Source: an uncultured bacterium (GTDB lineage Bacteria > Babelota > Babeliae > Babelales > Vermiphilaceae). From it: 64,000 bases of DNA. Position numbers and translations under genes: made by a program. The notes below the pieces were generated by a model that worked only from the letters and a program-made list of their open reading frames with translations, was not told where the DNA came from and made no database searches. Positions 41,621 to 56,420 of the stretch are shown piece after piece. The stretch covers positions 1,376,001 to 1,440,000 of the forward strand of contig OY969699.1 in NCBI GenBank assembly GCA_963702025.1, given 5' to 3'. The stretch's first letter is position 1; each line of letters starts with the position of its first letter.

Positions 41621-42781
41621 ATGTTCAAAACGTCTTTGGTAATAATCGGCACCACACTTGCTGCGTTACTCTGGTATGCATCACCTATTTTTAAACCCTT
41701 CCCAAAGCCAACCGGGCCCTATTCTGTTGGCACAACAGTTGTCGAATTAACAGAAGCCAATCGTAAAGAAACTTTTTCGGGAAATCCTGATGAGAAACGT
41801 ATGTTGGTTGCACGGATATTTTATCCTACTATCCGAGTAGATAATCTTGAAAAATATCCGTATCTTGGCAACAAAATGCCGTACTACCAAAAATTTGTGG
41901 CGTCTTATTATCAGGTTCCCGAATCTATAGCAAAATTGTTTTTGCGTGGGGTTGAAACTCATTCATTTATCAATGCCACAGTAGCAAACAAACAAAGCTC
42001 GTATCCCGTTGTCTTATTTTCTCATGGATTACTTGGCCTGCCCAGTGACACCTCTTTAACGATTTTAGAAAACCTTGCAAGTCATGGGTATATTGTTGTT
42101 GCAATTGATCACTCATATTTAAATGCACTTACCTTGTTTGCCGATGGCAGAGTGACTTCTTCGGTTAAATTGAGCGAGCAGTTTAATAAAATGCGGCCGC
42201 ACGAACAAAAAGAGTTTCAGACCAAAGCAATTGATGTGTATAAAGCCGACATGAAATTTATAATCGATGAACTAGTGAAACTCAATGAAGATCCCAAAAG
42301 CATCTTTTACCACCGCATTAACCTGGAAAAGATTGCCGCAATGGGCCATTCTGCTGGCGGTACCGCTTCAATAGAGTTTTGCCGGAGTGATAATCGATGC
42401 AAGGCAGCAATAGATCTTGATGGCTGGTATGATCAAGCAATTGGCCTAGAACCCATTAATAAGCCATTGCTTTTGATGTTTGGTTCAAAAAGCCTGGAAG
42501 TTTCTGAGCCCACGTCGGAATATTTAAAAAGAAAAGAGCTAACGCGAGAACAATATTTTGAGCGTGAGAAGAATATTGATGCTCACATCAAGAAATTATG
42601 TTCCGTGCCTACCTGCTCTTTTGTTATTATCCCCAATGCAAGCCATGGCGATTTTGATGATGAAATGTTTATAAAATGGCCATTGAGATCATGGAATGAA
42701 GTTGAACCATATACAACAATAGCATTAATCAATGGCCATATTGTACAATTTTTGAATAAATACTTATCAAAAGAAAAATAA
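41621..42781 (+). CDS. Alpha/beta hydrolase (PAF-acetylhydrolase-like)
   Basis: PKPTGPYSVG, PVVLFSHG, LASHGYIVVAIDH, nucleophile motif GHSAGG, DLDG, ASHGDF. Confidence 0.9.
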   Translation: MFKTSLVIIGTTLAALLWYASPIFKPFPKPTGPYSVGTTVVELTEANRKETFSGNPDEKRMLVARIFYPTIRVDNLEKYPYLGNKMPYYQKFVASYYQVPESIAKLFLRGVETHSFINATVANKQSSYPVVLFSHGLLGLPSDTSLTILENLASHGYIVVAIDHSYLNALTLFADGRVTSSVKLSEQFNKMRPHEQKEFQTKAIDVYKADMKFIIDELVKLNEDPKSIFYHRINLEKIAAMGHSAGGTASIEFCRSDNRCKAAIDLDGWYDQAIGLEPINKPLLLMFGSKSLEVSEPTSEYLKRKELTREQYFEREKNIDAHIKKLCSVPTCSFVIIPNASHGDFDDEMFIKWPLRSWNEVEPYTTIALINGHIVQFLNKYLSKEK

Positions 42782-42965
42782 GCATGAAATTACCAGATCA
42801 ATTTATTACTTTCGTTGAAAGTGTATGGCATGAACCTCAGTGTGCCCAGAAAATTATAGAAATTTGATTACGGCATCGTATCTGCTTGCTTAAATTTGCG
42901 GTATCATTACTCTATTAGATGTTTTTCACTCAATTACATCACCGTTAAAATAAAAGGATTCTCTC

Positions 42966-43586
42966 ATGTTCACATGCAAAGCACTCGCCATCATTCTTCT
43001 TGTAAGCTCATCCAGCACATTTTCCATGCAAAATGAAAAAAATAATGAGCAACCAAACCCATTTTTGCAAGGTTCTCAAGCAATACCGGTTCCCTCTATT
43101 ATTTATCCTTCTCTTCCAGTACCGCCCGTAACTCTTTCAATACCATTACCAATATTACCCAATGAATTACCAAAACGGAGCTTATGGGCCGGTGGCGCAA
43201 TTGCCAATATTGGTATTGCTGACCATGCAACGCGTTTCACCATAAGCACACTTGCGCATGCCAATGGATGCATTGAACATCGATATGCACCATCTACCTA
43301 TCTACTTGCCGCAGCAGGTGCGGGCCTGGCGGGTGCTTCAGCCGGATCCGTTTTACTCTGCGCAAAAAAAGCATATTGCGGACAACAAGCAATCATCAAG
43401 AAAAAAAAGGCCGCGCTGGGCATTGGCAAAGTAGCCAGTGGCGCCATTATTTTTGCACTGAGCACTCAATTAACTTCCCTTGATGATTCAATGGCCACTA
43501 CCACTCTTGCGCGCGGCGGGCAATTTATCAGTTTGGCCTGCGCCGCCGATGGTATTTATGATATTTATACATCTGTTGGCAAATAA
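42966..43586 (+). CDS. Secreted protein with a Pro-rich N-terminus and Gly/Ala-rich hydrophobic segments (signal peptide + MQ)
   Basis: ...SSSTFS|MQ; AAGGA RBS. Confidence 0.7.
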   Translation: MFTCKALAIILLVSSSSTFSMQNEKNNEQPNPFLQGSQAIPVPSIIYPSLPVPPVTLSIPLPILPNELPKRSLWAGGAIANIGIADHATRFTISTLAHANGCIEHRYAPSTYLLAAAGAGLAGASAGSVLLCAKKAYCGQQAIIKKKKAALGIGKVASGAIIFALSTQLTSLDDSMATTTLARGGQFISLACAADGIYDIYTSVGK

Positions 43587-43629
43587 CGCGAACTCGAACT
43601 AAAAAACTAGAGGAACAAATTGAGAAAGG

Positions 43630-43761
43630 CCGCTCGTGGTGAGTGCAGCCGCAGGCTGCGTATCAAACCATGCGGCCCAAAAATCATAAGATATATTGAT
43701 AAATATTTATTAAACCCGCATGGTTCGATACGATTGCTTCGCAATCACTCACCACGAGCGG
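43630..43761. repeat. REP-doublet (REPIN-like) inverted element
   Basis: Arms at 43630-43675 and 43716-43761 are inverted copies of CCGCTCGTGGTGAGT-[hairpin]-GTATCRAACCATGCGG. Confidence 0.8.
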
Positions 43762-43819
43762 GTTTTATGACTAATTTTCAAAATTTTATCCCAATTTAAC
43801 GTTAATTAAAAGGATCCGC

Positions 43820-44542
43820 ATGAAAACATCCATCTCATTACTTCTACTCACCATCTGCACAGTACCGCAGTACCTCGTTGCGTCCGAACATTGCAGCAAA
43901 AAGAAAATTGATCCATCACATGAATATTCCACCTGGGAAAGCCTCATTGATCAATCAATAATTCAAGCATGCATTAAAAGCACGCAATGGTGCAAACAAA
44001 GAACATTGAAAGAGAATGAAAAGGATTTACAAACTGCCTGCGAGCAGCTGAATAATGATATTGCGAAACTTAAAAACGGAAACCATTCACGTGCTAAGAG
44101 TGCGCGAGATGCCGTATGGACCATTTATCTAAAAAAAACATTCGATATAACTGAAAGTCAAAAGGATCTTTCCAAAAACAAGATTACCCAACTGGAACAA
44201 CAATTACGCAGAAAGGAGCTGCTCAGTTTACACTATGAATTACACAATCAGAATAATTGGCAATCGCATATTTCGTCAGAAATTATAAGCGCTTGCCGGC
44301 GAGTAAATAATAATCTGGGCTCACTGGAACTGGAATCAAAAGATGTGGAAGTTCATAAAGCTTGTGCCCAATTGCAAAAGGATATGCTTGCTTTGACATA
44401 TGGGAATAAGGGAAAAGCTGCGGATGCCCGCCGAAACATCGACATCATTAACAGCAAAACTAGTTCTACTGAAGTTCCCGGCGGCTGCAGTCGTACAAGT
44501 GCGGAAATGATCGATGCTTTGGCAAATCGACAGCTTTCATAA
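43820..44542 (+). CDS. Secreted helical protein with an internal two-fold domain duplication
   Basis: WESLIDQSIIQAC...ACEQLNNDIAKLKNGNHSRAKSAR versus WQSHISSEIISAC...ACAQLQKDMLALTYGNKGKAADAR. Confidence 0.75.
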   Translation: MKTSISLLLLTICTVPQYLVASEHCSKKKIDPSHEYSTWESLIDQSIIQACIKSTQWCKQRTLKENEKDLQTACEQLNNDIAKLKNGNHSRAKSARDAVWTIYLKKTFDITESQKDLSKNKITQLEQQLRRKELLSLHYELHNQNNWQSHISSEIISACRRVNNNLGSLELESKDVEVHKACAQLQKDMLALTYGNKGKAADARRNIDIINSKTSSTEVPGGCSRTSAEMIDALANRQLS

Positions 44543-44552
44543 AAAAAAATTT

Positions 44553-44822
44553 TTAAAAATATGGCGGGCCCCATGCCAGATAATCAAATCCGGTATCATG
44601 ACCTTTTTTTTCATGTGTCATGCAGTGATGGGCACAATATTCATCAAGTATTTTTTGCGCATGAATCTTTACATCAATATCTTGTTTAAAATATTCTATC
44701 AATCGCATCCGGATCGCAAAACCGGCGAACTCATATAGAGAATCATGCGCTACAAATCGCATCATACCTTTCCATAAATCTGCAGGCAATAATTGCAAAT
44801 AATTATCAAATGGAAGGATTAA
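44553..44822 (-). pseudogene. Leaderless fragment with an F-box-like start (PFDNYLQLLPADLWKGMMRFV)
   Basis: No ATG or signal peptide; matches SYLQLLPKDLW of the 56862 protein. Confidence 0.45.
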
Positions 44823-44830
44823 TTTATCTT

Positions 44831-45529
44831 TTAACTTTTTTTTAACAATGCGTTAAACTCGGCAACAACTTTTGCATGATGTTCTTTATCTGCTGCAAAA
44901 TCATAAGAAAACGTAGAGGCAATCTCGCTCCCGGAATATTTTGGAGTAAATGGAGGACGGTAGCCTCTGGTTATCATTATATCGGACGCCCCTTCTTCAT
45001 CCTTTGCAGTTTCACTCTTATGTTTTTGATATGCTTCACGTAGCGGCGCATTATAAATCTTATCTTCTTCGGTTTCAAAACCTGAAAATAAAAGCTCAAC
45101 TTTTTTGTTATTTACCAAGCAGTGAACTTTACCGGTTGGGATATAGCTGAGCAAGCGATGCACCTGATCTTTTTTTGTCATCATAACTAAACATGCACCG
45201 CTATCAATGGTGCCATTCTTTATTTTTTCAAGTAGCTCATGAAATGGCTTTTGATCGAGATCACGAGCTTTTGATGCTTGCACGCAGAGTTGGATAAAAA
45301 ATGGCTGTTGCACCCGCGCAAGCTTTACCGTATCATCTGCTTGCTCGGTTTCTGCCAGCGGGCTAAGATAATGGTCATAGATTTCTTTGACCCTGCCGCC
45401 TCGGCCATCGCTTACCCACACATCGCCATTATCTTCGATGATGCATTTGAAATAGGGGCGGCCTTCCATTGCTTGCATGCTTATAATACTAAAACACGCT
45501 AATGCGATTATATTTTTTATGTAATTCAT
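44831..45529 (-). CDS. Secreted protein, unnamed 'QLxVQA/HRLL' family member 1
   Basis: ...SMQA|ME; FFIQLCVQASK, HRLLSYIPTG, YDFAADKEHHAKVVAEF. Confidence 0.8.
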   Translation of the reverse strand: MNYIKNIIALACFSIISMQAMEGRPYFKCIIEDNGDVWVSDGRGGRVKEIYDHYLSPLAETEQADDTVKLARVQQPFFIQLCVQASKARDLDQKPFHELLEKIKNGTIDSGACLVMMTKKDQVHRLLSYIPTGKVHCLVNNKKVELLFSGFETEEDKIYNAPLREAYQKHKSETAKDEEGASDIMITRGYRPPFTPKYSGSEIASTFSYDFAADKEHHAKVVAEFNALLKKS

Positions 45530-45556
45530 GAGATCCTCAATAATTAATGATATGAT

Positions 45557-46321
45557 CTATTTTCCAACTTCACGCAACTCTTGTTTCCATGCTTGTTTTT
45601 TTTGTTCTAGTTTTGCTGCTTCTTGCAGTGCAGCCTCTTTGTCTTGTTGATATTTTTTTAAAACAAATTTGCAACCCGGTGCAAAAAAGGGCAATACATT
45701 GCATCTTAAAATTACCGGTAGAGAGACTGATCGCTTTATATGTGTAAACATAAGCTCGGCTACGCCCTCATCTTTTATTGCTTGCATCTGATTAAAGATG
45801 CCAAAGTCGGGCTCCGCTACAAGAGAGCGATGAGAAAATGGATACTCGTCTGGATCAGCAAAAGTTATTGCCATTGCCCCTTCCCGGCTATAAAGCCCAA
45901 AAAAAACTTTCAAGAAACCAATATTCTTGTGCGCCAGAGCCTTATCAAAAAATGATACTTTTGTATTAATAGCGAATAAGGTGAACTGACTTGCTGGTGG
46001 CTTTGTCCAGTAATAATCTTCGTCCCTGTAGTAAGTTTGTTTATATTTAATTTCATTTCTAACCTCATATCTATCACTCGCGGAATCTTTATTTGCGCAT
46101 AATAGAGCACGAAGATAGAGGCTATCTTTTTTTCTTTCAAAATTTTCAGCAAGCTTTTCTAATTGCTCAGTTCTGCACTTGTAGTCACATCCTTGTTTTT
46201 CGAATTCTTGTAAAAATTTACGATGGTCTTCTTGCGAACACGGTTCAATTTTCTCTTCCATTGCACATAGGCTTATAATGCTAAAACAAGCTAACGCAAT
46301 TATTTTTTTGGTAATATTCAT
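45557..46321 (-). CDS. Secreted hypothetical protein (signal peptide + ME)
   Basis: MNITKKIIALACFSIISLCA|ME. Confidence 0.75.
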   Translation of the reverse strand: MNITKKIIALACFSIISLCAMEEKIEPCSQEDHRKFLQEFEKQGCDYKCRTEQLEKLAENFERKKDSLYLRALLCANKDSASDRYEVRNEIKYKQTYYRDEDYYWTKPPASQFTLFAINTKVSFFDKALAHKNIGFLKVFFGLYSREGAMAITFADPDEYPFSHRSLVAEPDFGIFNQMQAIKDEGVAELMFTHIKRSVSLPVILRCNVLPFFAPGCKFVLKKYQQDKEAALQEAAKLEQKKQAWKQELREVGK

Positions 46322-46330
46322 GAGATCCTT

Positions 46331-47050
46331 TTATGGCAATTTGTTTTGGAACAGCCCATTAAATTCAGCAACAATTTTTGCGTGATGTTCTTTATCTGCT
46401 GCAAAATCATAATTTGAGCTCAAGCGATCTTCACCGGTTAATTCCGTTTCTTTTCCTCTTCTGGCTTTTTGAGCAGCCAAAAATTCATAACATGGAAAGC
46501 CAGCCGGATCTAAAGGAAAATCTTCTTCCACTTTAGGCGCAACTGTTCTCACGATAGATTTATCTGGCTTATCAACCAATCGCATGCCAAGAATAATAGT
46601 CATTCTAATTTTTTTGTCGTTTACCAATTGCTTATTCACTTCTTTTCCCGAAGGAATATAACTGAGCAATCGATGTTCAGCATCTTTGTGGGTCACGGCA
46701 ATAGTTTCTTGTTCAGCCTCAATCTTGCCGCTTCGAACTCTATCCAACAATTCATGAAAGGGTATTGTATCGAGCTGCTTTATTTTTGAAGCTTGCACCA
46801 CTAGTTGAATAAATAATGCCTGTGGAATATTAAAATGTTGTTTGATATCATCTGCATTTTTAGTTTTATCCAGTGAATAAAAAAAGTTCGGATACGTTTC
46901 CTTTATCATGCCGCCGTGCTCATCTTTTATCCACACATCACCATTGCTGTCTTCTTCACTAAATACTCTATAATTATAAGCGCGCCCATCCTCCATTGCA
47001 GATGTAGCATTTGATAACAGTAGTACAGTTAGTAAGGCTTTTTTTAACAT
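46331..47050 (-). CDS. Secreted protein, 'QLxVQA/HRLL' family member 2
   Basis: ...NATSA|ME; LFIQLVVQASK, HRLLSYIPSG, YDFAADKEHHAKIVAEF. Confidence 0.8.
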   Translation of the reverse strand: MLKKALLTVLLLSNATSAMEDGRAYNYRVFSEEDSNGDVWIKDEHGGMIKETYPNFFYSLDKTKNADDIKQHFNIPQALFIQLVVQASKIKQLDTIPFHELLDRVRSGKIEAEQETIAVTHKDAEHRLLSYIPSGKEVNKQLVNDKKIRMTIILGMRLVDKPDKSIVRTVAPKVEEDFPLDPAGFPCYEFLAAQKARRGKETELTGEDRLSSNYDFAADKEHHAKIVAEFNGLFQNKLP

Positions 47051-47062
47051 AAGATTCCTTTA

Positions 47063-47179
47063 TTATTGAATATCACAAGACCATGAAGACCGTATTAACT
47101 GGGTAGCTTTAATCGGGTTCTGCTGCATGAAATAGACTGCATTCGATGTAAGTATTATTATAAAGGCTTTTTTTAACAT
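47063..47179 (-). pseudogene. 38-aa leader-only mini-ORF or truncated gene
   Basis: MLKKAFIIILTSNAVYFMQQNPIKATQLIRSSWSCDIQ*; ATG overlaps the upstream TAA; leader resembles MLKKALLTVLLLSNATSAME of the next gene. Confidence 0.5.
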
Positions 47180-48066
47180 TATTTTTCCAATTCTTGTTTA
47201 ACTGTTTCAATAAAAGATGCTTCCCATCCTGTTGTGTTTGATGCTGAAAATATTGCTAGCAAACTAAGAATTCGTTTTCGAGATTCTTGTAATTGAATCA
47301 AGGTATACGTGTCCTGCTGCGATAGAATATTGGCAGGCTTTTGTAATTGAGCGATCTCTTTTTCTTTGCTTTGCAATGCCTCCTGTTTTGCCACAGCATC
47401 GGACGTGAGAGCCTGTACTTGCAGCGTTAAAAGAGCCGCATCATTTATTTTTTCTAGTAACTGAGTTTTCAAACGAGCTGCTGAATCCTGAAGCTCTTTA
47501 TGTTCTTGCGCCGAAATCACCTGTTGCCCAGATAGCTGCGTTTGTAAATGCGCAATCAACTCATCTCTTTGTGTAAAAGCTGCCTCCAATTCTTTAGCCA
47601 TTTTTTTATAGCCAAGTGCTTGCTGTCTCGCTTCTTCACCATAAAATGCTTGATCAATAGTACTGAAACTGGCCGCAGCCATGTCTGATACATAATCATG
47701 ATTTGCCAATTCCCATAGCTTTTTCAATCCTGCGAGTTTCTCAATTTTAGTTGTTATTGCTTGAGACTGGCCTTGATTTGCAGAAATTCCATTAAATGCC
47801 ATCTCCAATTCTTTTGCGATTGCTTGGGCACGATTACGCATTTCCCTGTTACCCGTATTTAAGAATTCTATCGTTGCAGGATCATGGTCAGTATTATCCC
47901 AATTTTGTTCTGGAATCAAATTATGTAATTTTTTTATTCCCGCCTGGAATTCTGCTTTGTGTTTAGCTATTTCTTGCAAACCCGAACGTTCCATGCAAAA
48001 AAGCAAGACGTTAAAGCTAAAACCGGCTAGTAAAATAAATATTTTTTTTACCATGTTGATTCTCAT
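47179..48066 (-). CDS. Secreted coiled-coil protein with a shared C-terminal motif (signal peptide + ME)
   Basis: ...VLLFC|ME; ends QESRKRILSLLAIFSASNTTGWEASFIETVKQELEK. Confidence 0.8.
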   Translation of the reverse strand: MRINMVKKIFILLAGFSFNVLLFCMERSGLQEIAKHKAEFQAGIKKLHNLIPEQNWDNTDHDPATIEFLNTGNREMRNRAQAIAKELEMAFNGISANQGQSQAITTKIEKLAGLKKLWELANHDYVSDMAAASFSTIDQAFYGEEARQQALGYKKMAKELEAAFTQRDELIAHLQTQLSGQQVISAQEHKELQDSAARLKTQLLEKINDAALLTLQVQALTSDAVAKQEALQSKEKEIAQLQKPANILSQQDTYTLIQLQESRKRILSLLAIFSASNTTGWEASFIETVKQELEK

Positions 48067-49346
48067 TAATTCTTATGCAATTCTTCTGTGATTGTCGCAA
48101 TAAATGTTGCTTCCCATCCGGTTGTTTTTGATGCTGAAAACATCGCCAACAAACTGCGCATGCGTTCACGGGACTCTTGCATTTGCGCTAAAGCTTGTGC
48201 CCTCTGTTGGGCGAGAGCATCAAATTGAGCCGCTTGGATCTCTACGGTTTCAAGTTGCTTTTGAAGTTTTGCGTTCTCATCTTCTTTTCTTTTCAAATTG
48301 CCGCGTACGATTTGTTTAACGTGTCTCTGACTTGCAAGTTGCTGTTCGAGTGACTCAACTTGTTTTTTGTTTTCACTAAGCGTAGTGTCTAAAGTTGCTT
48401 GGATCTTTTTAAGGTGCAACTGTTTTTCTGCAATCTCTGCTAAAAGATTTTTCTCACTTTCCTCATAATGCTGAATTCGCTGGCTGAGACCGCGTTTTTC
48501 TAAAATACCCTCTTGATGCAAATTATTTAATCGTATAACTTCATTATGTTTTGCAATTGCTTCAGCACGAAGATCTGCAAGTTGCCCACGTGTTTGGGTA
48601 AGTTCGGTTACTTTTGCTGTGAGAGTCTGCTGAAGCACTTCCGGTTGGCTCAGGCGAATGACTTCTTGATTTAAGCAATCAATTTCAGCTTGTTTAGTCG
48701 GGATTGCTCGCTTCATCACAGAAAGCAAACCCCAATCATCGCCTTCTTGCATTTGCGATTGCAATAATTCTGTTTCTTTTTTCCAGTCAAAAAAAAATTC
48801 AAAAATGACATCAATTGATTCTTCCTCTCCTTTTAACGTGGCAATTTTTTCTTTGAGGTGATTAATTTCTTTCATCTTGGGCGCTAAAACTTGCTTAACC
48901 TGCTCTTCATGCGAATAAAATTTACCACGTTCTGCTTGCCCTAGTGCTTGATAATACTCATCCCAAAACCGGTATGAAGGGCAAACCTGCTGAGCCAGCT
49001 GTGTCATGAGCTTAAGCTTTCTTATTTTTTCTTCTTTTGTTTTGGGACGGTCTTCATCTTTCATATACATGGATAAATGTATATAAGAAGCTACTACATC
49101 CTCATCTTTTAATTGAGTAACGTGTTGACCGGCAGCTCTTTTTTCATTATTTTCTTTGTCATAACAATTTATTTTCCAAGATTTATATTGTTCGGCAAGT
49201 ATTTGAACATCTTGTTGCGCCTGGTGTGCCACATGCTGTACTCGCGCTTGTCTTAACTTTTCAAGATCGGGCTTGGCTACCATTCCTTCAACAGAGCAAT
49301 TAATAACGCTTGTTAAGAGCAGTAATACAATAATAATTTTCTTCAT
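48066..49346 (-). CDS. Secreted long coiled-coil protein with a shared C-terminal motif
   Basis: ...CSVEG|MV; ends QESRERMRSLLAMFSASKTTGWEATFIATITEELHKN. Confidence 0.8.
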   Translation of the reverse strand: MKKIIIVLLLLTSVINCSVEGMVAKPDLEKLRQARVQHVAHQAQQDVQILAEQYKSWKINCYDKENNEKRAAGQHVTQLKDEDVVASYIHLSMYMKDEDRPKTKEEKIRKLKLMTQLAQQVCPSYRFWDEYYQALGQAERGKFYSHEEQVKQVLAPKMKEINHLKEKIATLKGEEESIDVIFEFFFDWKKETELLQSQMQEGDDWGLLSVMKRAIPTKQAEIDCLNQEVIRLSQPEVLQQTLTAKVTELTQTRGQLADLRAEAIAKHNEVIRLNNLHQEGILEKRGLSQRIQHYEESEKNLLAEIAEKQLHLKKIQATLDTTLSENKKQVESLEQQLASQRHVKQIVRGNLKRKEDENAKLQKQLETVEIQAAQFDALAQQRAQALAQMQESRERMRSLLAMFSASKTTGWEATFIATITEELHKN

Positions 49347-49458
49347 TCATTTCCTCGTAAAAATTTAATTTTTTAATTTATTAATTTCTAATATTATTTA
49401 CTCATCGGCAGACTTGCACTTGCAATTGGAGCCGGTGCTGCTTGCGCTTTATGAAGAG

Positions 49459-49485
49459 AATGGGCCCGATAGTTTCGGGCCCATT
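49459..49485 (-). terminator. Hairpin downstream of the ankyrin gene
   Basis: AATGGGCCCGA-TAGTT-TCGGGCCCATT, perfect 11-bp stem. Confidence 0.65.
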
Positions 49486-49496
49486 GTGATAGTTTT

Positions 49497-50273
49497 TTAT
49501 GGTTTGATGCTACTCGGCTCAACCGGCAGACTGGCGGTTGTTAATGATAGCGCCACGGGCTCACCGGTAGCAAGCTGTGCCTTCTTTTTTACTGCCTCAC
49601 TCAGCACATCAAATAGTGCTGCCCCATTGGTATTGGTTGCCACATAATGCAATGCTGAATTACCTGATTTATCAAGCTCCTCGATACGAGCGCCTTTGAG
49701 CACCATTTCTTCCAGGCCCTCAGCACTATCTGCTTGGCACGCACGATGAAGCGCAAATTCTTGAGATGCATTTTTAATGTCAAACAGCTTTTTACATGAT
49801 TTTTGAAGAGTAATGAGCACTGTCGGATCACTATAATCTTTATAGGCAAGCGCATGATAGACAGCACCGGTATTGCCAAAATCAGGAGTTACCGCCACCG
49901 AAGCTCCGGCAAGAACAAGAGTTTCCACAACGTCCACGTGCCCTTTTTTACAAGCAATATGAAGCGCCGTTGCATTTTCATTATCAGTTTGATCAACTAA
50001 TGCGCCGTTTTTGAGCAATATTTCTGCAATTGTGTTCTTATTATACTCAGCGCTCAACATAAGCGGCGTTCTTTGCAGCGGCAATGCGCGTGCATCAATG
50101 CGCGCACCCAGCTCAAGAAGCTTTTTTGCCACTTCGGTATTACCCACCGATACGGCAGTATGCAACGGGGTCCAGCCCGCTGCATTGCGAACGTCTATCA
50201 GTTTTTCCATAGCCTGTAAGTTTGAAATGGTGGCGCTCACCAAGAAAAGAGAAATGTGTAATGACTTTGCCAT
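49497..50273 (-). CDS. Secreted ankyrin-repeat protein (signal peptide + ME)
   Basis: GWTPLHTAV, RTPLMLSA, ATALHIAC, FALHRAC, GNSALHYVA. Confidence 0.93.
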   Translation of the reverse strand: MAKSLHISLFLVSATISNLQAMEKLIDVRNAAGWTPLHTAVSVGNTEVAKKLLELGARIDARALPLQRTPLMLSAEYNKNTIAEILLKNGALVDQTDNENATALHIACKKGHVDVVETLVLAGASVAVTPDFGNTGAVYHALAYKDYSDPTVLITLQKSCKKLFDIKNASQEFALHRACQADSAEGLEEMVLKGARIEELDKSGNSALHYVATNTNGAALFDVLSEAVKKKAQLATGEPVALSLTTASLPVEPSSIKP

Positions 50274-50444
50274 TGCCTACTCCTGCATAGTTAAAAAAAG
50301 TCGTACGGTTGTTAAACTGCGCACACTCTACCAATTTAAAAAGAAAAAGCCAAGCGATTTTTTGCTTGCATATTTTTAATCAATGATTACCATTATGAGC
50401 AGTGAATATATGTACCATTAAAATTCAATACCGTAAGGATCGCT

Positions 50445-50645
50445 ATGAAAAAACTGATTTTTGCACTGGTTTGTTTTTCTGCTGCTGAAGCAGTAGCAAT
50501 GGAAACTCATCGGGAACGCCAAGAAAGAGAGATGTATCGACCAACTGCACCGGCTCCCATTCACGGACAACCTATAACTCACAGACAGCGCCAAGAAGCT
50601 AACCTCGCCAATCCATCTGCTCCTCAACCGGGCCAAAAACGATAA
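50445..50645 (+). CDS. Small secreted peptide (signal peptide + ME)
   Basis: MKKLIFALVCFSAAEAVA|METHR...; AAGGA RBS. Confidence 0.7.
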   Translation: MKKLIFALVCFSAAEAVAMETHRERQEREMYRPTAPAPIHGQPITHRQRQEANLANPSAPQPGQKR

Positions 50646-50671
50646 TATTTAAGAGTGGGTAGAAAATTCAA

Positions 50672-50713
50672 AAAACCCGTTCGTGGTGAGCTTGTCGAAC
50701 CATAGCGGGTTTT
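50672..50713. repeat. Single REP-like copy forming a hairpin between convergent genes
   Basis: AAAACCCGTTCGTGGTGAGCTTGTCGAACCATAGCGGGTTTT; same flanks as the 43630 element. Confidence 0.7.
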
Positions 50714-50721
50714 CTTTTGCT

Positions 50722-51288
50722 CTATTTTCCAAGCAATTTACTAAATTCTTTTTCAATCTTTTCACGATGATCCATCTCTGAATCAAAATCATCTTCATTA
50801 TTGGCAACTATCGTTATCTTAAGTGGCGCGCCTACGCGCTTTCCTTGATGCGCCTGGATCCCCGCATTAGCAAACTGATTATTCAACAAAACCTCATGAA
50901 AAACCATGCCGCATTCTTGATCAACGTTGCCGTTCCAAGGAATATATTTGAGCAAAGTATGAAAAGCGGCTGAATAGTTAGTTTTAATGAGCGGGCCATT
51001 AAAGCTGTCTTCTTGCCGATTAATATCATGCGCTAAATCTGCAAAGGATGCCGCAGTAAAATTTTTATCTTGTGCCGCTTGCACAAAAAGATGAAAAAAT
51101 AATCGTTTTTTTGTCCGAATTGTAATGACGTCCGCGTGCTCTGCGGTAAAGCATTGAACCACAGCAGGAGATGTTGCAAGAGATTTGTTGTACCTATTGT
51201 TGAGATTTTCTTTCTCTTGCGGGCACTCCATCGCATATCCGTTTATTGTTATAAGCGCTAACAGTGAATTTGCAATTATTATTTTCAT
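50722..51288 (-). CDS. Secreted protein, 'QLxVQA/HRLL' family member 3
   Basis: ...NGYA|ME; LFFHLFVQAA, HTLLKYIPWNG, DFDSEMDHREKIEKEF. Confidence 0.75.
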   Translation of the reverse strand: MKIIIANSLLALITINGYAMECPQEKENLNNRYNKSLATSPAVVQCFTAEHADVITIRTKKRLFFHLFVQAAQDKNFTAASFADLAHDINRQEDSFNGPLIKTNYSAAFHTLLKYIPWNGNVDQECGMVFHEVLLNNQFANAGIQAHQGKRVGAPLKITIVANNEDDFDSEMDHREKIEKEFSKLLGK

Positions 51289-51293
51289 GATTA

Positions 51294-52019
51294 TTAATGC
51301 GCCAGCTCAAAAAAGAGATGATCCCGCGTTGCTTTTTCGTCAAGATTGGCGACCTGCACAGCAGGTTTAAGTTTTGTATAATCCAGGCCATGCACAATTA
51401 CTTTAGTTCCTTGTTTATTAAAATCGATAGTAGAAATATTGCCGAAAAAGTGCGGTATCGTGAATGTTTGCGGTATTTCAAATTTGTCCGGTTGTAGGCC
51501 CGGCTTGCGCAGTTTTTGCACCGCAAGCACCGTTTTCCAATCAAGGCGTTCAATGCCCCCTTGGGGGAATACCATTTCATGTTTCAGTGTTGCTAAAAGT
51601 ACCCCATCATAAGAAAGAGCAATGTGGCGCACATCCGTCAAAGATTCGAAATGTGTAATATCCTCAAGGCCCTGATTGATTTGGGCAATTTTTTCAGACA
51701 ATGCATAGCGTTGTTTCAGATCATACACGGCAAGAATTGCAGAAACGGAAGTAAAGCCTTTTTTTCCATCAAAAGTGTTATGTTTCCTCTCTAAAGTAAG
51801 CATCGTAGAAGAATCCCGCCAATATGTATCGATCATATCTATAGCAAGACAAGGAGAATCTGAGCTGTCTGATTCATGTTGCAAGAATTTTTCTCTTGTC
51901 CGCTCGACACATTCGGCATCCGTTTCTGAATCAATGGTATCTAATGGGCTTGGCGATTGTTGCATAGTGTAGGTACAGTTTGCGAATAATAGCGTAATTG
52001 CAATGATGATGTTTTTCAT
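51294..52019 (-). CDS. Secreted protein with WD40-like blades (signal peptide + MQ)
   Basis: HIALSYDGVLLA and IDFNKQGTKVIVHG; paralogous to the 53504 gene. Confidence 0.7.
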   Translation of the reverse strand: MKNIIIAITLLFANCTYTMQQSPSPLDTIDSETDAECVERTREKFLQHESDSSDSPCLAIDMIDTYWRDSSTMLTLERKHNTFDGKKGFTSVSAILAVYDLKQRYALSEKIAQINQGLEDITHFESLTDVRHIALSYDGVLLATLKHEMVFPQGGIERLDWKTVLAVQKLRKPGLQPDKFEIPQTFTIPHFFGNISTIDFNKQGTKVIVHGLDYTKLKPAVQVANLDEKATRDHLFFELAH

Positions 52020-52047
52020 GGAATATCCTTCTTTAATGATGATTTTT

Positions 52048-52860
52048 TTATTTCTTTATCAACTCATAAAACTCTTTAAGAATCATATTATGATGTTCGG
52101 CATCAGCTTCAAAAAAATAATCCGCTAATAGTCGTTGCCCTGAATATTGATAATATTCATATTCACCCTTAATTTCTTGGCCCCACTTCCATTCTTGTGG
52201 TGGCAATTTTTCTCGAGCAACTTTAATTTTTAGATTTTCTATTGTATCCTCATCAGTTTCATATGGTCGTAGAACAAACCGCACTTTTTTTCCATTAATT
52301 AATGACTTGGTATGTCCGGTTGGAACACATGCAAGTAAGCGATGGCATAAATCTTTTTTGGTAATGCCAACCTTATTGGTATGCACCTTAACATTATCAT
52401 ATATGCCTAATCCTTCACCATCACGTATTGCAATCTTGTTGTATGTTATAATTTCATTAGCACCTATCTTTACAAAATTATCTTTTTTTATTTTGGCCAA
52501 AAGCTCTTGAAAAGCGGCTAAGCGAGCGCCAACCGCTTTTGATGCCTGCACACATAATTGCATGAAAAGTGATGATCTCACCAATGAATATTGGCCCACA
52601 TCATCATAGAATGCCGTTTTTTCTAAATCACAAAAATAATGATCAAAAACCTCTGCTTTTTCTAACAGAGGATTCTCAGAGCCTTGTTGGGGAGTTTCAT
52701 TTTTTTCTGTGGTAATAAAAAGATCACCTGAATTGATAATAACCTTAAAATCACCCATTTGAACCAAATGAGCATATGGTTGTTCGGGTGCTGGTTTTTC
52801 TTCCATTCCGAGCGCTACCGCATTCATCATTAATAAAACCGACAACATGATTTTATTCAT
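52048..52860 (-). CDS. Secreted protein, 'QLxVQA/HRLL' family member 4
   Basis: ...AVALG|ME; LFMQLCVQASK, HRLLACVPTG, YFFEADAEHHNMILKEF. Confidence 0.8.
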   Translation of the reverse strand: MNKIMLSVLLMMNAVALGMEEKPAPEQPYAHLVQMGDFKVIINSGDLFITTEKNETPQQGSENPLLEKAEVFDHYFCDLEKTAFYDDVGQYSLVRSSLFMQLCVQASKAVGARLAAFQELLAKIKKDNFVKIGANEIITYNKIAIRDGEGLGIYDNVKVHTNKVGITKKDLCHRLLACVPTGHTKSLINGKKVRFVLRPYETDEDTIENLKIKVAREKLPPQEWKWGQEIKGEYEYYQYSGQRLLADYFFEADAEHHNMILKEFYELIKK

Positions 52861-53492
52861 TTTGAGTTCCTTTCAAGTTTACGGCAAAGTTTTTCAAATT
52901 CATCACAGATTTTTTCGTGTTCTTGATCCTCATAAAAATTATGTCCGGAAAACATTTCTATAATTTTCACCGGTTTTATACATTTTGATTGCCATTTTAA
53001 AAAAGCCAACCCTATTTTTGTTTCATTAATGAGTGTATTGTAACAGTTGATCGTATTATCACCAATGCCATCCCACGGGATGCGAGACAATAGTTTATAA
53101 AATTCGTTCGGCTCTTCAATGCCGATCCAATCATTATTGTGATTTAAAGATTTTTCTAAATCACTTTGTAAGCCAAGCAACAAAGATGGATCATATTCCC
53201 ATTGAGTAGGGAAAGTTTCTCTCTCTCTTATTTTGCACGCTTGCACCACTAAATGTATAAATAATGGTCTTTGAGTTGTAACAATATTCGTATCACCAAA
53301 TATTTTTTTTAAATGGGGAGCGTCGGCCAAAACTTTGTTATAGGCACGTAGATGAGAAGGCATATTGGAAATATTGCGTGCAGCCGCGTTATAATGTGCT
53401 ACAAAATTAACTTTTGGTTTAGGCGCTATCATTGCTTGAATGGGAATGCACAATGCCGCTAAATTCAGCGCTACAATAATCTTTTTCTTCAT
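52857..53492 (-). CDS. Secreted protein, 'QLxVQA/HRLL' family member 5
   Basis: ...IPIQA|MI; LFIHLVVQACK, YKLLSRIPWDG, NFYEDQEHEKICDEF. Confidence 0.75.
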   Translation of the reverse strand: MKKKIIVALNLAALCIPIQAMIAPKPKVNFVAHYNAAARNISNMPSHLRAYNKVLADAPHLKKIFGDTNIVTTQRPLFIHLVVQACKIRERETFPTQWEYDPSLLLGLQSDLEKSLNHNNDWIGIEEPNEFYKLLSRIPWDGIGDNTINCYNTLINETKIGLAFLKWQSKCIKPVKIIEMFSGHNFYEDQEHEKICDEFEKLCRKLERNSK

Positions 53493-53503
53493 TGATTAAC
53501 CCT

Positions 53504-54298
53504 TTATTTTTGCAAACTATTTGCAAGCTTTTTGCAAACGCCGCGTTGTTTAAAATAATCATCCAAAGTTTGTTTGCTTTTTTTAGCTTGAGCTTTACGC
53601 TCTTCTTTGTTCATCAGGTTCCACAGAAAATAAGTAGGTTCTTCTTTTTCAAAGCAAACGCCATGAGTAATAATTTTGGTGCCTTGCTTATTAAAATCAA
53701 GAAAAACGATATTTTTCAAAAGCATCGGAATAGGAAAATCTCTTTTAGTGTTGGTAGGAATATGAATCACCGTGATTTGCGCGCTATTTGGAGGAGCAGT
53801 AGCTCCTTGACATGCTATCGTTCTTTGGCCCAATCGCCCGAACCATTGGCCATCCGATGAAATGGCAACATCGATAGTTTGATAATAATATTTATCAGCA
53901 TCAATTACTGTGGCCACAGTATCAAGAGAGATGCGCTCTGAATCTTCTTTGGGCACCGTATCCCAAGCAATCACTCTTGATACCGTGGAATCACTTTGAT
54001 CAAGATAAACCTTCTTCAAATTATCAGGAGAATAAGCAGAAAAACAGGTAGAAATGCGCCCTTGTGACCGCCTATATTGTTGCGCGTCTCTATGATAATC
54101 ACTGACATTATGGCTTTTAATTTCTGTGCGGCGAATAAAATCAGCTTTTGATTCTCTCTTTCTGTTCGGCAAATAACTTGCAATAATATTCTGCGCATCT
54201 TTGGGCAGCATGGCTAAATAACAAATGCCCTGCTCACGTTGCATTGCTTGCAAAAAGCTGCAAAAAAGTAACGGCGCTACAATACTACGTAATTTCAT
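53504..54298 (-). CDS. Secreted protein with an F-box-like motif and WD40-like blades (signal peptide + MQ)
   Basis: CYLAMLPKDAQNIIASYL; AYSPD, VAISSDGQW, LDFNKQGTKIITHG. Confidence 0.7.
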   Translation of the reverse strand: MKLRSIVAPLLFCSFLQAMQREQGICYLAMLPKDAQNIIASYLPNRKRESKADFIRRTEIKSHNVSDYHRDAQQYRRSQGRISTCFSAYSPDNLKKVYLDQSDSTVSRVIAWDTVPKEDSERISLDTVATVIDADKYYYQTIDVAISSDGQWFGRLGQRTIACQGATAPPNSAQITVIHIPTNTKRDFPIPMLLKNIVFLDFNKQGTKIITHGVCFEKEEPTYFLWNLMNKEERKAQAKKSKQTLDDYFKQRGVCKKLANSLQK

Positions 54299-54856
54299 TT
54301 AGGGACACCACATATCATTATTCCTTTGCTTCTCTTGATTGTAATTTCTCCTCTTGTTAAGAAATCTAATCAAAAGAGGATCGGCCCCACTCTGCTCAAC
54401 GTTCTCCCTCCATGATGAATCACTACAAAATCCAACAATAAGATCATCAGCGCAGGCGCTAATAATTGAGCTATTAAGCACTATGAGCGTATACTCAGCT
54501 TCGCTTTTTATAAATCCATTTAAAAACTTTTCAACCAGGTATTGGTTCGTGGCTTTGAAATGCAATGATACCGGCGTGATATGAAATAGACTATTTTCAT
54601 AAGAAATGTTGCAAGCTTCTTTGAGCAGTGGCATGGCTGCCCATTTGTTTATTTTGCGATAGCTTTCCCCGTAACGTTCACAAAGCTTATCATCGATTGC
54701 TTTTGCCAAAAGCTTTCGCTGCTTGGGCAATTTTTTCTCAATGTGATCGGCGATTGTTTTGACACACAACGATGCAAGCGATGGAATCCCGCTGCGGCTG
54801 GCCAGAAAATGAGTAAGGGAAAATGTAAAAAGTATGAGCGCTAAAAGTTTTTTCAT
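54299..54856 (-). CDS. Secreted protein with a BC-box/SOCS-like motif
   Basis: Signal peptide followed by IPSLASLCVKTIADHI. Confidence 0.65.
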   Translation of the reverse strand: MKKLLALILFTFSLTHFLASRSGIPSLASLCVKTIADHIEKKLPKQRKLLAKAIDDKLCERYGESYRKINKWAAMPLLKEACNISYENSLFHITPVSLHFKATNQYLVEKFLNGFIKSEAEYTLIVLNSSIISACADDLIVGFCSDSSWRENVEQSGADPLLIRFLNKRRNYNQEKQRNNDMWCP

Positions 54857-55100
54857 ATGCTGCTATTCAAGAAAATGTCCCAAAAATCTCTATAAAGGAT
54901 GCCAATTTCTAAAAATAATGCCACAGTAACCTGCAAAAAAGCAATCGCTCTCGACTTAAAAATATGACTCATATGATTCATTTTTGGCTATTTATGACTC
55001 ATGCGAGTTATATGAGTTGTATTTTCAAATGACTTGCTATTTTGCCATGCATTTTTTATACTCAAATAAAACTTTTGCATCGCAAAATTAATAGGAAACT

Positions 55101-56420
55101 ATGAAAAGATATATAATCCGGGCTAATGAAGACGTTATTTTTGAGTCTTTTGAGAGGCCCTTCATAAGCGCCCTTTTGGGGCCTCGCAGGGTAGGAAAGA
55201 CTACATTGCTTGAATATTATATTGGCCAACACCCCCAAAGAAAATGGGTGAAATTCAATATGGATATTCTGAGCCAACGAGATCGGGTTTCTCAAGAAGA
55301 ACTGGCCCTCATGATCGAACAAACAGCATTACAAAAAATTGGTGGACCTCAAAAACTCTGGGTTTTTATCGATGAGGCGCAAAAATGTCCGGAACTTTTT
55401 GATCAAATTAAAGTGATATACGATACCTATAAAGGCACCAATCATATTAAATTTCTACTCACCGGATCAGCGCACCTTAATCTTCATCAATTGACCGCCG
55501 AATCACTGGCCGGGCGAGTAGAATTACTCAATTTACGTGAATTTAACTTGAAAGAAATGGCATTATTGGAAAATCATAACCTGAGCGTTCCACATGATAA
55601 TGCATTTGATGCCATTTTTCATAATAAGATAAGCACCTTGCATAAAAATTTCTCCGACTTATCTCCGTTTCAACTCGTTTTGCAATCTGCCCTAGAAGAT
55701 CTTTTAGTATGGGGAGGACTTCCTGAAACGATGCAAGAGCCTTCGGAAAAATTCCGTTTAAAATATCTGGGCGACTATCTGCAAACCTATTTGGAAAAAG
55801 ATATTCGCGCAATCGATACCATAGGGGATCTAACTCTTTATCAAAACTTAATGAAAATTGCTGCTGAACAAACAGGCTCTATCCGCGATGATAAAAAAAT
55901 TATTGAGGCACTCCATTGCTCCCGCATCACCCTTACCAAATACCGTGATTATTTGCTGGCAACTTTGCAATATGAAGAGATCTATCCGTATTTGCGCAGC
56001 TCGGTTAAACGGCTGGTAAAATCTCCTAAAGGATACCTTATAAACAATGGGCTTGTGAGCTACCTTACCGGCATTCATGAATTTTCTATACTTAAAACAA
56101 CCAATATGCTCGGCTATCGCTTTGAAAATTGGTTTTTAAATGAAATTAATACCTGGCTCGACGCTCAAACCGCTCATCATCAGGTTTTTTACTGGCGCAC
56201 CGGAGCAGGAGCTGAGGTGGATTTTGTTATCACATTGGGGAATAAAGTAATTCCGTTTGAAGTTACGTATGCATCTTCTATCGAAACTAAAAAATTAAAT
56301 AATTTAAAGAACTTTATGAAGAGCACTTCGCAGGTACCCCTTGGGGTGTTTTGCTACAATGGAAAACTGGAATTTGACAGTGAAAATAATATCCTCTTTT
56401 TACCGGCATGGATGATATGA
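55101..56420 (+). CDS. AAA+ ATPase (AAA_14) with DUF4143 / PD-(D/E)xK-like C-terminus
   Basis: Walker A GPRRVGKTT, Walker B FIDEAQK, LTGS, WGGLPE, YWRTGAGAEVDFVI...PFEVT. Confidence 0.92.
   Translation: MKRYIIRANEDVIFESFERPFISALLGPRRVGKTTLLEYYIGQHPQRKWVKFNMDILSQRDRVSQEELALMIEQTALQKIGGPQKLWVFIDEAQKCPELFDQIKVIYDTYKGTNHIKFLLTGSAHLNLHQLTAESLAGRVELLNLREFNLKEMALLENHNLSVPHDNAFDAIFHNKISTLHKNFSDLSPFQLVLQSALEDLLVWGGLPETMQEPSEKFRLKYLGDYLQTYLEKDIRAIDTIGDLTLYQNLMKIAAEQTGSIRDDKKIIEALHCSRITLTKYRDYLLATLQYEEIYPYLRSSVKRLVKSPKGYLINNGLVSYLTGIHEFSILKTTNMLGYRFENWFLNEINTWLDAQTAHHQVFYWRTGAGAEVDFVITLGNKVIPFEVTYASSIETKKLNNLKNFMKSTSQVPLGVFCYNGKLEFDSENNILFLPAWMI

Follow-up and report, generated by a model that had tools for sequence, protein, structure and literature searches.

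Terminal reassortment, reportedly described for type III effectors by Stavrinides, Ma and Guttman in 2006, leaves the signal part and the cargo part of one protein with discordant histories. Here we describe a discordance of this kind in a stretch of 64,000 nucleotides (nt) from an uncultured bacterium (G000:C1:1376001-1440000, hereafter the window), whose genome (G000) is a single contig of 1.596 Mb with 39% G+C. Two adjacent genes of the window, X1 and Y, start with closely similar DNA that encodes a leader of one type (L1) and continue with bodies for which no relationship was detected. X1 is one of nine copies of a family, X, in this genome, five of which (X1, X2, X3, X4 and X5) lie in the same gene array. 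As judged from the sequence, the locus is a real, modest case of leader replacement within a recombining array of predicted exported proteins.

Compared with terminal reassortment, the leader here is predicted to be of the Sec type and cleavable, no type III export gate was found, the tract is only ~75 nt long and includes the ribosome-binding site (RBS), and the leader probably came from the gene next to it rather than from a mobile element or from outside this genome. A second related system is the SVM signal peptide of phytoplasmas, which we take to be Pfam family PF12113 and to occur on unrelated secreted proteins. As in that system, one type of signal peptide stands on unrelated predicted exported proteins in a reduced, host-dependent bacterium. 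However, L1 was seen only on X1, on X9 (a further family X member) with its relatives P0035 and P0037, and on the Y family, which is no large set, and neither X1, Y and X2 nor 13 of their neighbours matched the SVM signal in Pfam at E ≤ 0.01. A third parallel comes from the CRN (Crinkler) effectors of Phytophthora, in which a conserved N-terminal leader is reported to be joined to varied C-termini by recombination of fragments (PMC3726527). In both cases there is a conserved motif past the signal peptide, and leader and cargo recombine in tandem families of a host-dependent organism; CRNs differ in being eukaryotic and in their frequent exchange, which gives rise to a superfamily, whereas we have one clear case in ~270 leader genes. 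Dependentiae proteomes are rich in signal peptides, a putative one being present in 44% of the coding sequences of one cultured member (PMC6561590). Word searches of the literature, which prove little, did not turn up any account of exchanged leaders in these bacteria.

The leaders of X1, X2 and Y have the properties of Sec signal peptides, that is, a positive start, a hydrophobic core of ~10 to 15 residues and a small residue before the cut. G000 encodes SecY (E = 1.3e-105) and a signal peptidase I that scores over the cut-off, and the type III export gate FHIPEP (PF00771) was not found in this genome (95% complete) by a search that matched 4 of 14 control genomes. With SecY and signal peptidase I present and the type III gate not found, the leaders are best read as Sec signal peptides, and the likeness to type III effectors drawn by the first-pass annotation does not suit this machinery.

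A leader cassette common to X1 and Y

The first-pass annotation had noticed a near-identical 5' cassette on two genes with unrelated bodies, and indeed 75 nt of minus-strand DNA are 80% identical between X1 and Y (Table 1), with no detectable homology between the bodies. The tract extends from 8 nt upstream of the ATG (AGGATCTC) through ATGGAAG and comprises the RBS and the signal peptide; it stops exactly at the Ala-Met-Glu junction, past which nothing is alignable. The leaders agree in 17 of 22 residues, and the 8 noncoding bases before the ATG are identical. Furthermore, of the 15 identical residues whose codons are degenerate, 11 are encoded by the same codon in both genes, compared to 6.0 expected from codon usage (P = 0.009, from 15 codons only).

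Table 1. Positions of the genes, cassettes and structural differences discussed in the text (numbering of the window; aa, amino acids)
Feature	Position	Strand	Basis or remark
Orphan open reading frame (ORF), 81 aa, no leader, TTG start	44553..44798	-	Frame open from 44852, first start at 44798
X1, family X paralog, leader L1	44831..45529	-	Body nearest to P0006/P0007 from other organisms
Conserved C-terminal family X motif in X1	44838..44906	-	Partner 46344-46412 in X2; holds 30 identical bases
L1 cassette of X1, likely recipient copy	45463..45537	-	80% identical to that of Y; DNA self-comparison, upstream bases, codon test, body tree, leaders of relatives
Y, predicted member of a separate uncharacterised family, leader L1	45557..46321	-	Single copy in genome
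L1 cassette of Y, likely donor copy	46255..46329	-	DNA self-comparison, upstream bases, codon test
X2, family X paralog, leader L2	46331..47050	-	Body search, tree, strain comparison
Leader-only mini-ORF, 38 aa, X2-like leader	47063..47179	-	In 129-nt unit absent from sister strain
CC1, leader-bearing coiled-coil protein	47179..48066	-	Stop overlaps ATG of mini-ORF (TAATG)
CC2, coiled-coil gene	48066-49346	-	113-nt 3' module in common with CC1
4.67-kb stretch missing from sister strain	48515..53184	.	Joint 48514->53185, 4 shared letters
X3, family X paralog	50722-51288	-	Family search, tree
X4, family X paralog	52048-52860	-	Family search, tree
X5, family X paralog	52857-53492	-	Family search, tree

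Both genes belong to an array (~43.8-54.9 kb of the window) of tightly packed minus-strand genes, nearly all of which start with a hydrophobic leader that terminates in Ala/Gly/Ser-Met-Glu/Gln; Y is separated from X2 by 9 nt and from X1 by 27 nt. Leaders were recognized with a regular expression of our own and not with a standard predictor. In the whole genome, a looser form of the rule is matched by 299 of 2,545 ORFs of at least 80 aa, and a stricter form, to which X1, X2 and Y conform, by 270 ORFs of at least 100 aa. The leader of these ~270 ORFs ends with a small residue, after which come Met and one of Glu, Asp and Gln (examples in the window lie at 42966-54856). When the first 26 residues of the 270 ORFs were compared in all 36,315 pairs and body relatedness was judged by blastp, X1 and Y turned out to be the most alike leader pair without body homology (17/26), and nonhomologous pairs with 10, 11, 12 and 13 identities numbered 136, 36, 6 and 2.

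By chance, or by selection for one leader sequence without any shared DNA ancestry, some similarity would be expected, given that all leaders are alike in composition and in their Met-Glu end, and unrelated pairs do reach 10 to 13 identities. However, 17 of 26 is far beyond this background tail, the bases before the ATG are identical although they are noncoding, the same codon is used in excess, and X1 and Y are adjacent; convergence is therefore close to refuted, and the leader identity together with the noncoding bases and the silent sites argues for shared DNA ancestry. What is expected of gene conversion is also seen here: a patch of high similarity between unrelated flanks, a donor and a recipient in one genome and only 27 nt apart, and a similarity at silent sites that exceeds the expectation from codon usage, in a small sample.

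Distant homology of the Y body to family X had been named as one of two findings that would refute the first-pass reading; by profile methods the body shows no detectable homology to that family, and on this count the reading was not refuted. Phmmer and hmmsearch comparisons of X with Y gave nothing outside the leader (hmmsearch --max score, −1.7 bits), and a search for the family X domain in the other frames of Y gave no match. In hhalign comparisons of 3 versus 12 and of 10 versus 27 rows only the leader aligned (Prob 49% and 21%), and the bodies by themselves reached a Prob of 0.08%. An exhaustive representative search returned nine proteins of the Y family, including the window's own P0001 and the allele P0028; the seven others are 29 to 44% identical, with leaders and a conserved Cys pattern that are their own. 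Since there is no body link to X, these relatives indicate that Y is a member of a family of its own and not of family X, as far as sequence comparison can tell. P0028 is a near-identical allele whose frame shifts after about residue 58 and stays open in the new frame, and Y is thus broken in some population.

Could Y nevertheless have arisen from a family X gene by tandem duplication, keeping its leader while its body diverged past recognition? Its length (254 aa, compared to 232 and 239 aa for X1 and X2), strand, place between X genes and leader would all fit, and a forced alignment gives three loosely collinear motif resemblances. In addition, just past the leader, residues ~30-43 of Y (46190-46235) recall the family X C-terminal motif faintly and without significance (hhalign E = 0.64). 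However, Y's own relatives do not preserve two of these three motif resemblances, profile comparisons give nothing past the leader, and the Y family keeps its own Cys pattern and has no X motifs down to 29% identity. Moreover, the Y body is strongly constrained at present, with 1 change in 232 residues relative to L039, a metagenome contig of a sister strain, and the nearest outside relative of X1, its likely ortholog, lacks L1. We consider such a diverged duplicate highly improbable.

Structure and domain searches gave little more. The AlphaFold model of Y, built from 3 sequences, has a mean confidence (predicted local distance difference test [pLDDT]) of 46.9, too poor for a fold comparison with X, and a Protein Atlas search with the Y body gave scores of 0.92 to 0.94 with few shared features and mixed families, and hence no lead. 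The model of X1 is better (pLDDT 82.5), and neither Foldseek against PDB (no match at E ≤ 0.001) nor VIA-align (best Z, 4.3, from one long helix only) allowed us to assign a fold or function. X1, X2, X4, X5, Y and the tail ORF had no Pfam match at E ≤ 0.01; X3 had a sub-threshold match to DUF4030 only (17 bits versus a cut-off of 25.2), and the Y family had sub-threshold matches only, in 2 of 10 members.

Probable direction of the leader transfer

That X1 and X2 have paralogous bodies, as the first-pass annotation stated, is borne out by 88 identities in 230 aligned residues. One body tree places X1 with X2, X4 and proteins of other genomes (93/97). In a further body tree, X1 together with X1 of L039 (97/97) and the pair P0006 and P0007 (95/94) share a clade with P0010 (86/87); this clade is drawn open, with no fixed order inside it. 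A leader of 22 residues is too short for a tree, and we therefore set the body trees against leader identities, those to P0002, P0006 and P0026 being counted by eye. The discordance between leader and body that had been suggested is indeed present in X1: its body belongs with X2, X4 and P0006/P0007, its leader belongs with Y and X9, and P0006 has another leader.

The relatives of both genes bear on the direction. P0002, from another organism, has a body 63% identical to that of Y and an L1 leader (17/22), and P0026 (body 44% identical to Y) has a leader weakly like L1. P0006, on the other hand, is 66% identical to X1 with the similarity starting right after Ala-Met-Glu and has a different, MKK-type leader; among the other family X leaders examined, none but that of X9 resembles L1. 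The longest contigs of the clusters of P0006, of P0003 (a relative of Y) and of P0009 (X2-like) measure 16,778 nt each, and these three genes are therefore probably on one contig. On the basis of the tree and of this presumed common contig, P0006 is likely the ortholog of X1. With L1 on relatives of Y and not on the nearest outside relative of X1, X1 most likely took its leader from Y. Leaders usually diverge fast, in that over 802 dispersed paralog pairs mean leader identity is 5.17 of 26 residues, no more than the background of 5.01, so likeness of leaders marks recency. We lean, with a little more confidence than doubt, toward a short recombination (gene-conversion) tract that copied the cassette from Y to X1 and ended at Ala-Met-Glu. 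The mechanism may have been short-patch conversion or illegitimate recombination between the adjacent genes, with copying directed from Y to X1, and the tract could have been anchored on sequence that is common to nearly all leaders (the RBS and ATGAA on one side, GCAATGGAA on the opposite side).

The opposite course, in which L1 is native to family X (X9 and X1) and was captured by the lineage of Y, with a later replacement of the leader in the lineage of P0006, appears unlikely to us. It would explain why two family X members, X1 and X9, have L1-like leaders, why P0037 pairs such a leader with the C-terminal extension of X9, why Y is wedged between two family X genes as if in a former X slot, and why the related array of G021 lacks Y. 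Yet L1-like leaders are already found on the Y relatives P0002 and, weakly, P0026, the clade of X1 is without L1 outside this pair of strains, and the leader of X1 is as near to that of Y as the leader of P0002 is, which fits ill with a capture that predates the split of P0026. As to the distribution of Y, it was not found in the 41 related genomes searched or by a search of genome contigs, the 4.3-kb stretch was not found in 7 other genomes of the genus, and the contig search with P0006 matched only G021.

X9 itself lies at G000:C1:1445654-1446487, 24 kb from X1, in a separate family X clade with X3 (100/99), and its leader shares 15 of 26 residues with that of Y. It has a C-terminal extension of ~90 aa past the family X domain, and P0037 consists of an L1-like leader joined to an extension of this type alone.

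Several points weigh against copying from Y to X1. The orthology of P0006 rests on the tree and on a contig linkage deduced from equal lengths only and may not hold, and the gene call of P0003 starts at the junction Met, so that its leader is not visible and may differ from what we assume. Leaders change fast: X2 and its counterpart in the sister strain (X2') are 65% identical in the leader and 95% in the body. It is hence conceivable that the leader of P0006 was the one replaced. The L1-like leader of X9, in another clade and 24 kb away, requires a second event or a different history. Furthermore, the codon test rests on 15 codons, and the share of same codons is similar in the bodies of X1 and X2 (57/86), so that the transfer would not be recent. 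Y and X may also have a fold in common, the model of Y being poor (pLDDT 46.9). Finally, there is one clear case only, and the second locus (see below) is weak.

Recombination in the array and leaders across the genome

L039 carries Y at 99% protein identity. Compared with window positions 42500-59125, it is a mosaic, 99.6% identical over 53185-59125 and 77 to 82% below 43800, which may reflect strain variation or an island common to different species; gene order in L039 is altered below 43 kb. Synonymous divergence (pS) per gene varies from 0 to 0.36, with 0.015 for the Y body, 0.08 for the X2 body and 0.28 for the X1 body, and nonsynonymous divergence (pN) in X2 is 0.167 for the leader and 0.023 for the body. 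The 4.67-kb stretch that is missing from L039 spans part of CC2, an ankyrin gene, X3, 51294-52019, X4 and part of X5. Its deletion fuses the first half of X5 to the end of CC2 out of frame, and the difference is thus a loss and not a new fusion.

L039 also lacks a 129-nt unit that holds the mini-ORF (joint 46985->47158); its X2' starts exactly at the position of the mini-ORF start, overlapping the stop of CC1. A divergent patch of ~250 nt extends there from the last ~30 codons of CC1 to within 4 codons past the Ala-Met-Glu of X2. Logan contigs contain the joint 46985->47158 in two runs (run labels X4 and X6) from two studies and the joint 48514->53185 in one run; as both joints recur in independent contigs, the structure of L039 is real, and the sister-strain structure without the 129-nt unit was seen in three assemblies. 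In X1, divergence from L039 jumps from ~2% to ~16% inside the leader, near codon 9, and high identity resumes near 44936, just upstream of the conserved C-terminal motif.

The mosaic pS, the divergence boundaries and the 4.7-kb deletion together indicate that the array recombines. In the comparison with the sister strain, boundaries lie in or next to two leaders, and other boundaries fall outside leaders; all told, the three that lie in or beside leaders are too few for a test. The whole array may be prone to recombination, with leaders and conserved motifs as preferred boundaries.

Reassortment on the scale of the genome, as the first-pass annotation envisaged it, finds little support in the leaders. 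Of the 17 leader pairs with at least 14 identities, all but three are ordinary paralogs; those left over are Y-X1 (17 identities), Y-X9 (15) and the pair 265630-268068 (14). At DNA level the leaders of the latter pair are identical at only 41 of 66 positions, and we regard it as a possible case only. The region concerned (G000:C1:265630-268772) encodes a 564-aa singleton and, separated from it by one gene, a leucine-rich-repeat protein, and the leaders of the two are alike in 14 of 22 residues; the tandem paralog of the leucine-rich-repeat protein, which lies in between, has a different leader.

A permanent system of reassortment between leaders and cargo throughout the secretome, acting by recombination at Ala-Met-Glu and routinely making new exported proteins, could draw on the junction common to ~270 ORFs, on the three boundaries in or beside leaders and on P0037 as another pairing of leader and body. 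It would also agree with a small effect of proximity, in that same-strand neighbours with unrelated bodies have slightly more alike leaders than distant pairs (mean identity, 5.40 versus 5.01; Mann-Whitney P = 0.001); 3 of 193 neighbour pairs and 180 of 35,260 distant pairs reached 10 identities or more. On the other hand, just 3 of the 17 highly similar leader pairs are without body homology and Y takes part in 2 of those 3, the 4.67-kb deletion joins genes out of frame and so represents decay and not a new fusion, neither a recombinase nor a dedicated repeat was seen in 42.5-55.2 kb, and further divergence boundaries lie outside leaders. With only two standout cases, the second of which is weak in its DNA, we rate such a system as very unlikely. 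Quite unlikely, too, is the related idea that recombination joints are provided genome wide by the stereotyped leader start and the Ala-Met-Glu junction, so that cassettes of RBS and signal peptide are exchangeable over ~270 genes, new exported proteins arise by capture of leaders from neighbours and strain breakpoints pile up in leaders. Leader copying looks like a rare local event and not like a general shuffling system.

Should genes be able to replace or gain a leader through a short patch from a neighbour, this would be a cheap route to new exported proteins, and capture of leaders, if true, would explain disagreement between leader and body in trees of such families. A similar leader in these genomes is a sign of recent duplication or exchange and not of family membership. 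There is a single clear case, and the weight of these wider implications is limited accordingly. On the practical side, gene callers truncate these leaders at the junction Met: the public gene calls P0001, P0003, P0004 and P0005 (Y, X1 and relatives) begin at or near it, and the leader is lost.

Other ORFs and smaller features of the array

The first-pass annotation arranged the genes around Y as a series of shuffled modules, from a leader-only ORF through X2, Y and X1 to a body without a leader. The transcription order it gave is correct, but the series dissolves on inspection of its other members. The 30 identical bases reported between X1 and X2 exist, within a 69-nt segment of 86% identity (Table 1), and fall on YDFAADKEHH, the best-conserved motif of family X. 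As a candidate conversion tract they were rejected: given that 57 of 86 codons are the same in X1 and X2 overall, a run of 9 same codons has a chance of ~0.02, uncorrected for position. Since the motif is conserved and the overall share of same codons is high, the 30 bases do not serve as evidence of exchange.

The ORF described as a body with no leader does exist and is leaderless, but it is unrelated to X and Y; it had no relatives in this genome or among the 79 further genomes of the family that were searched. In the sister strain the frame of this orphan is intact, with weak constraint (pN/pS of ~0.7). As for the mini-ORF, 29 nt match the start of X2 at 83%, which supports the proposed link to the X2 leader, but the match is only modest. 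Among the 270 leaders its best match is X2, with a score of 42 (next, 37; mean, 19.3; standard deviation [SD], 5.8), and past the first 37 nt (−8 to +29 of the ATG) the comparison with X2 DNA scored −16 versus −22.9 for shuffles (SD 5.2), which is not significant. The mini-ORF varies between strains and is a scar or a partial duplicate.

Between 44.3 and 49.6 kb, neither promoter-like sites (19 versus 14.1 in shuffles; SD 4.2) nor terminator-like sites (4 versus 5.0; SD 2.1) were in excess. The 3' module of CC1 and CC2 (47183-47295 and 48073-48185) is 77% identical over its 113 nt, and the CC1 gene of the sister strain has a third, equally distant version of it. Just outside the array, a stretch of ~40 nt (43720-43761) is matched by many otherwise unrelated contigs in all four metagenome runs, with loose ends on both sides; an inverted repeat (43625-43675 / 43716-43766) is present at this site and a related copy at 50664-50690. 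This stretch looks like a short, widespread repeated element.

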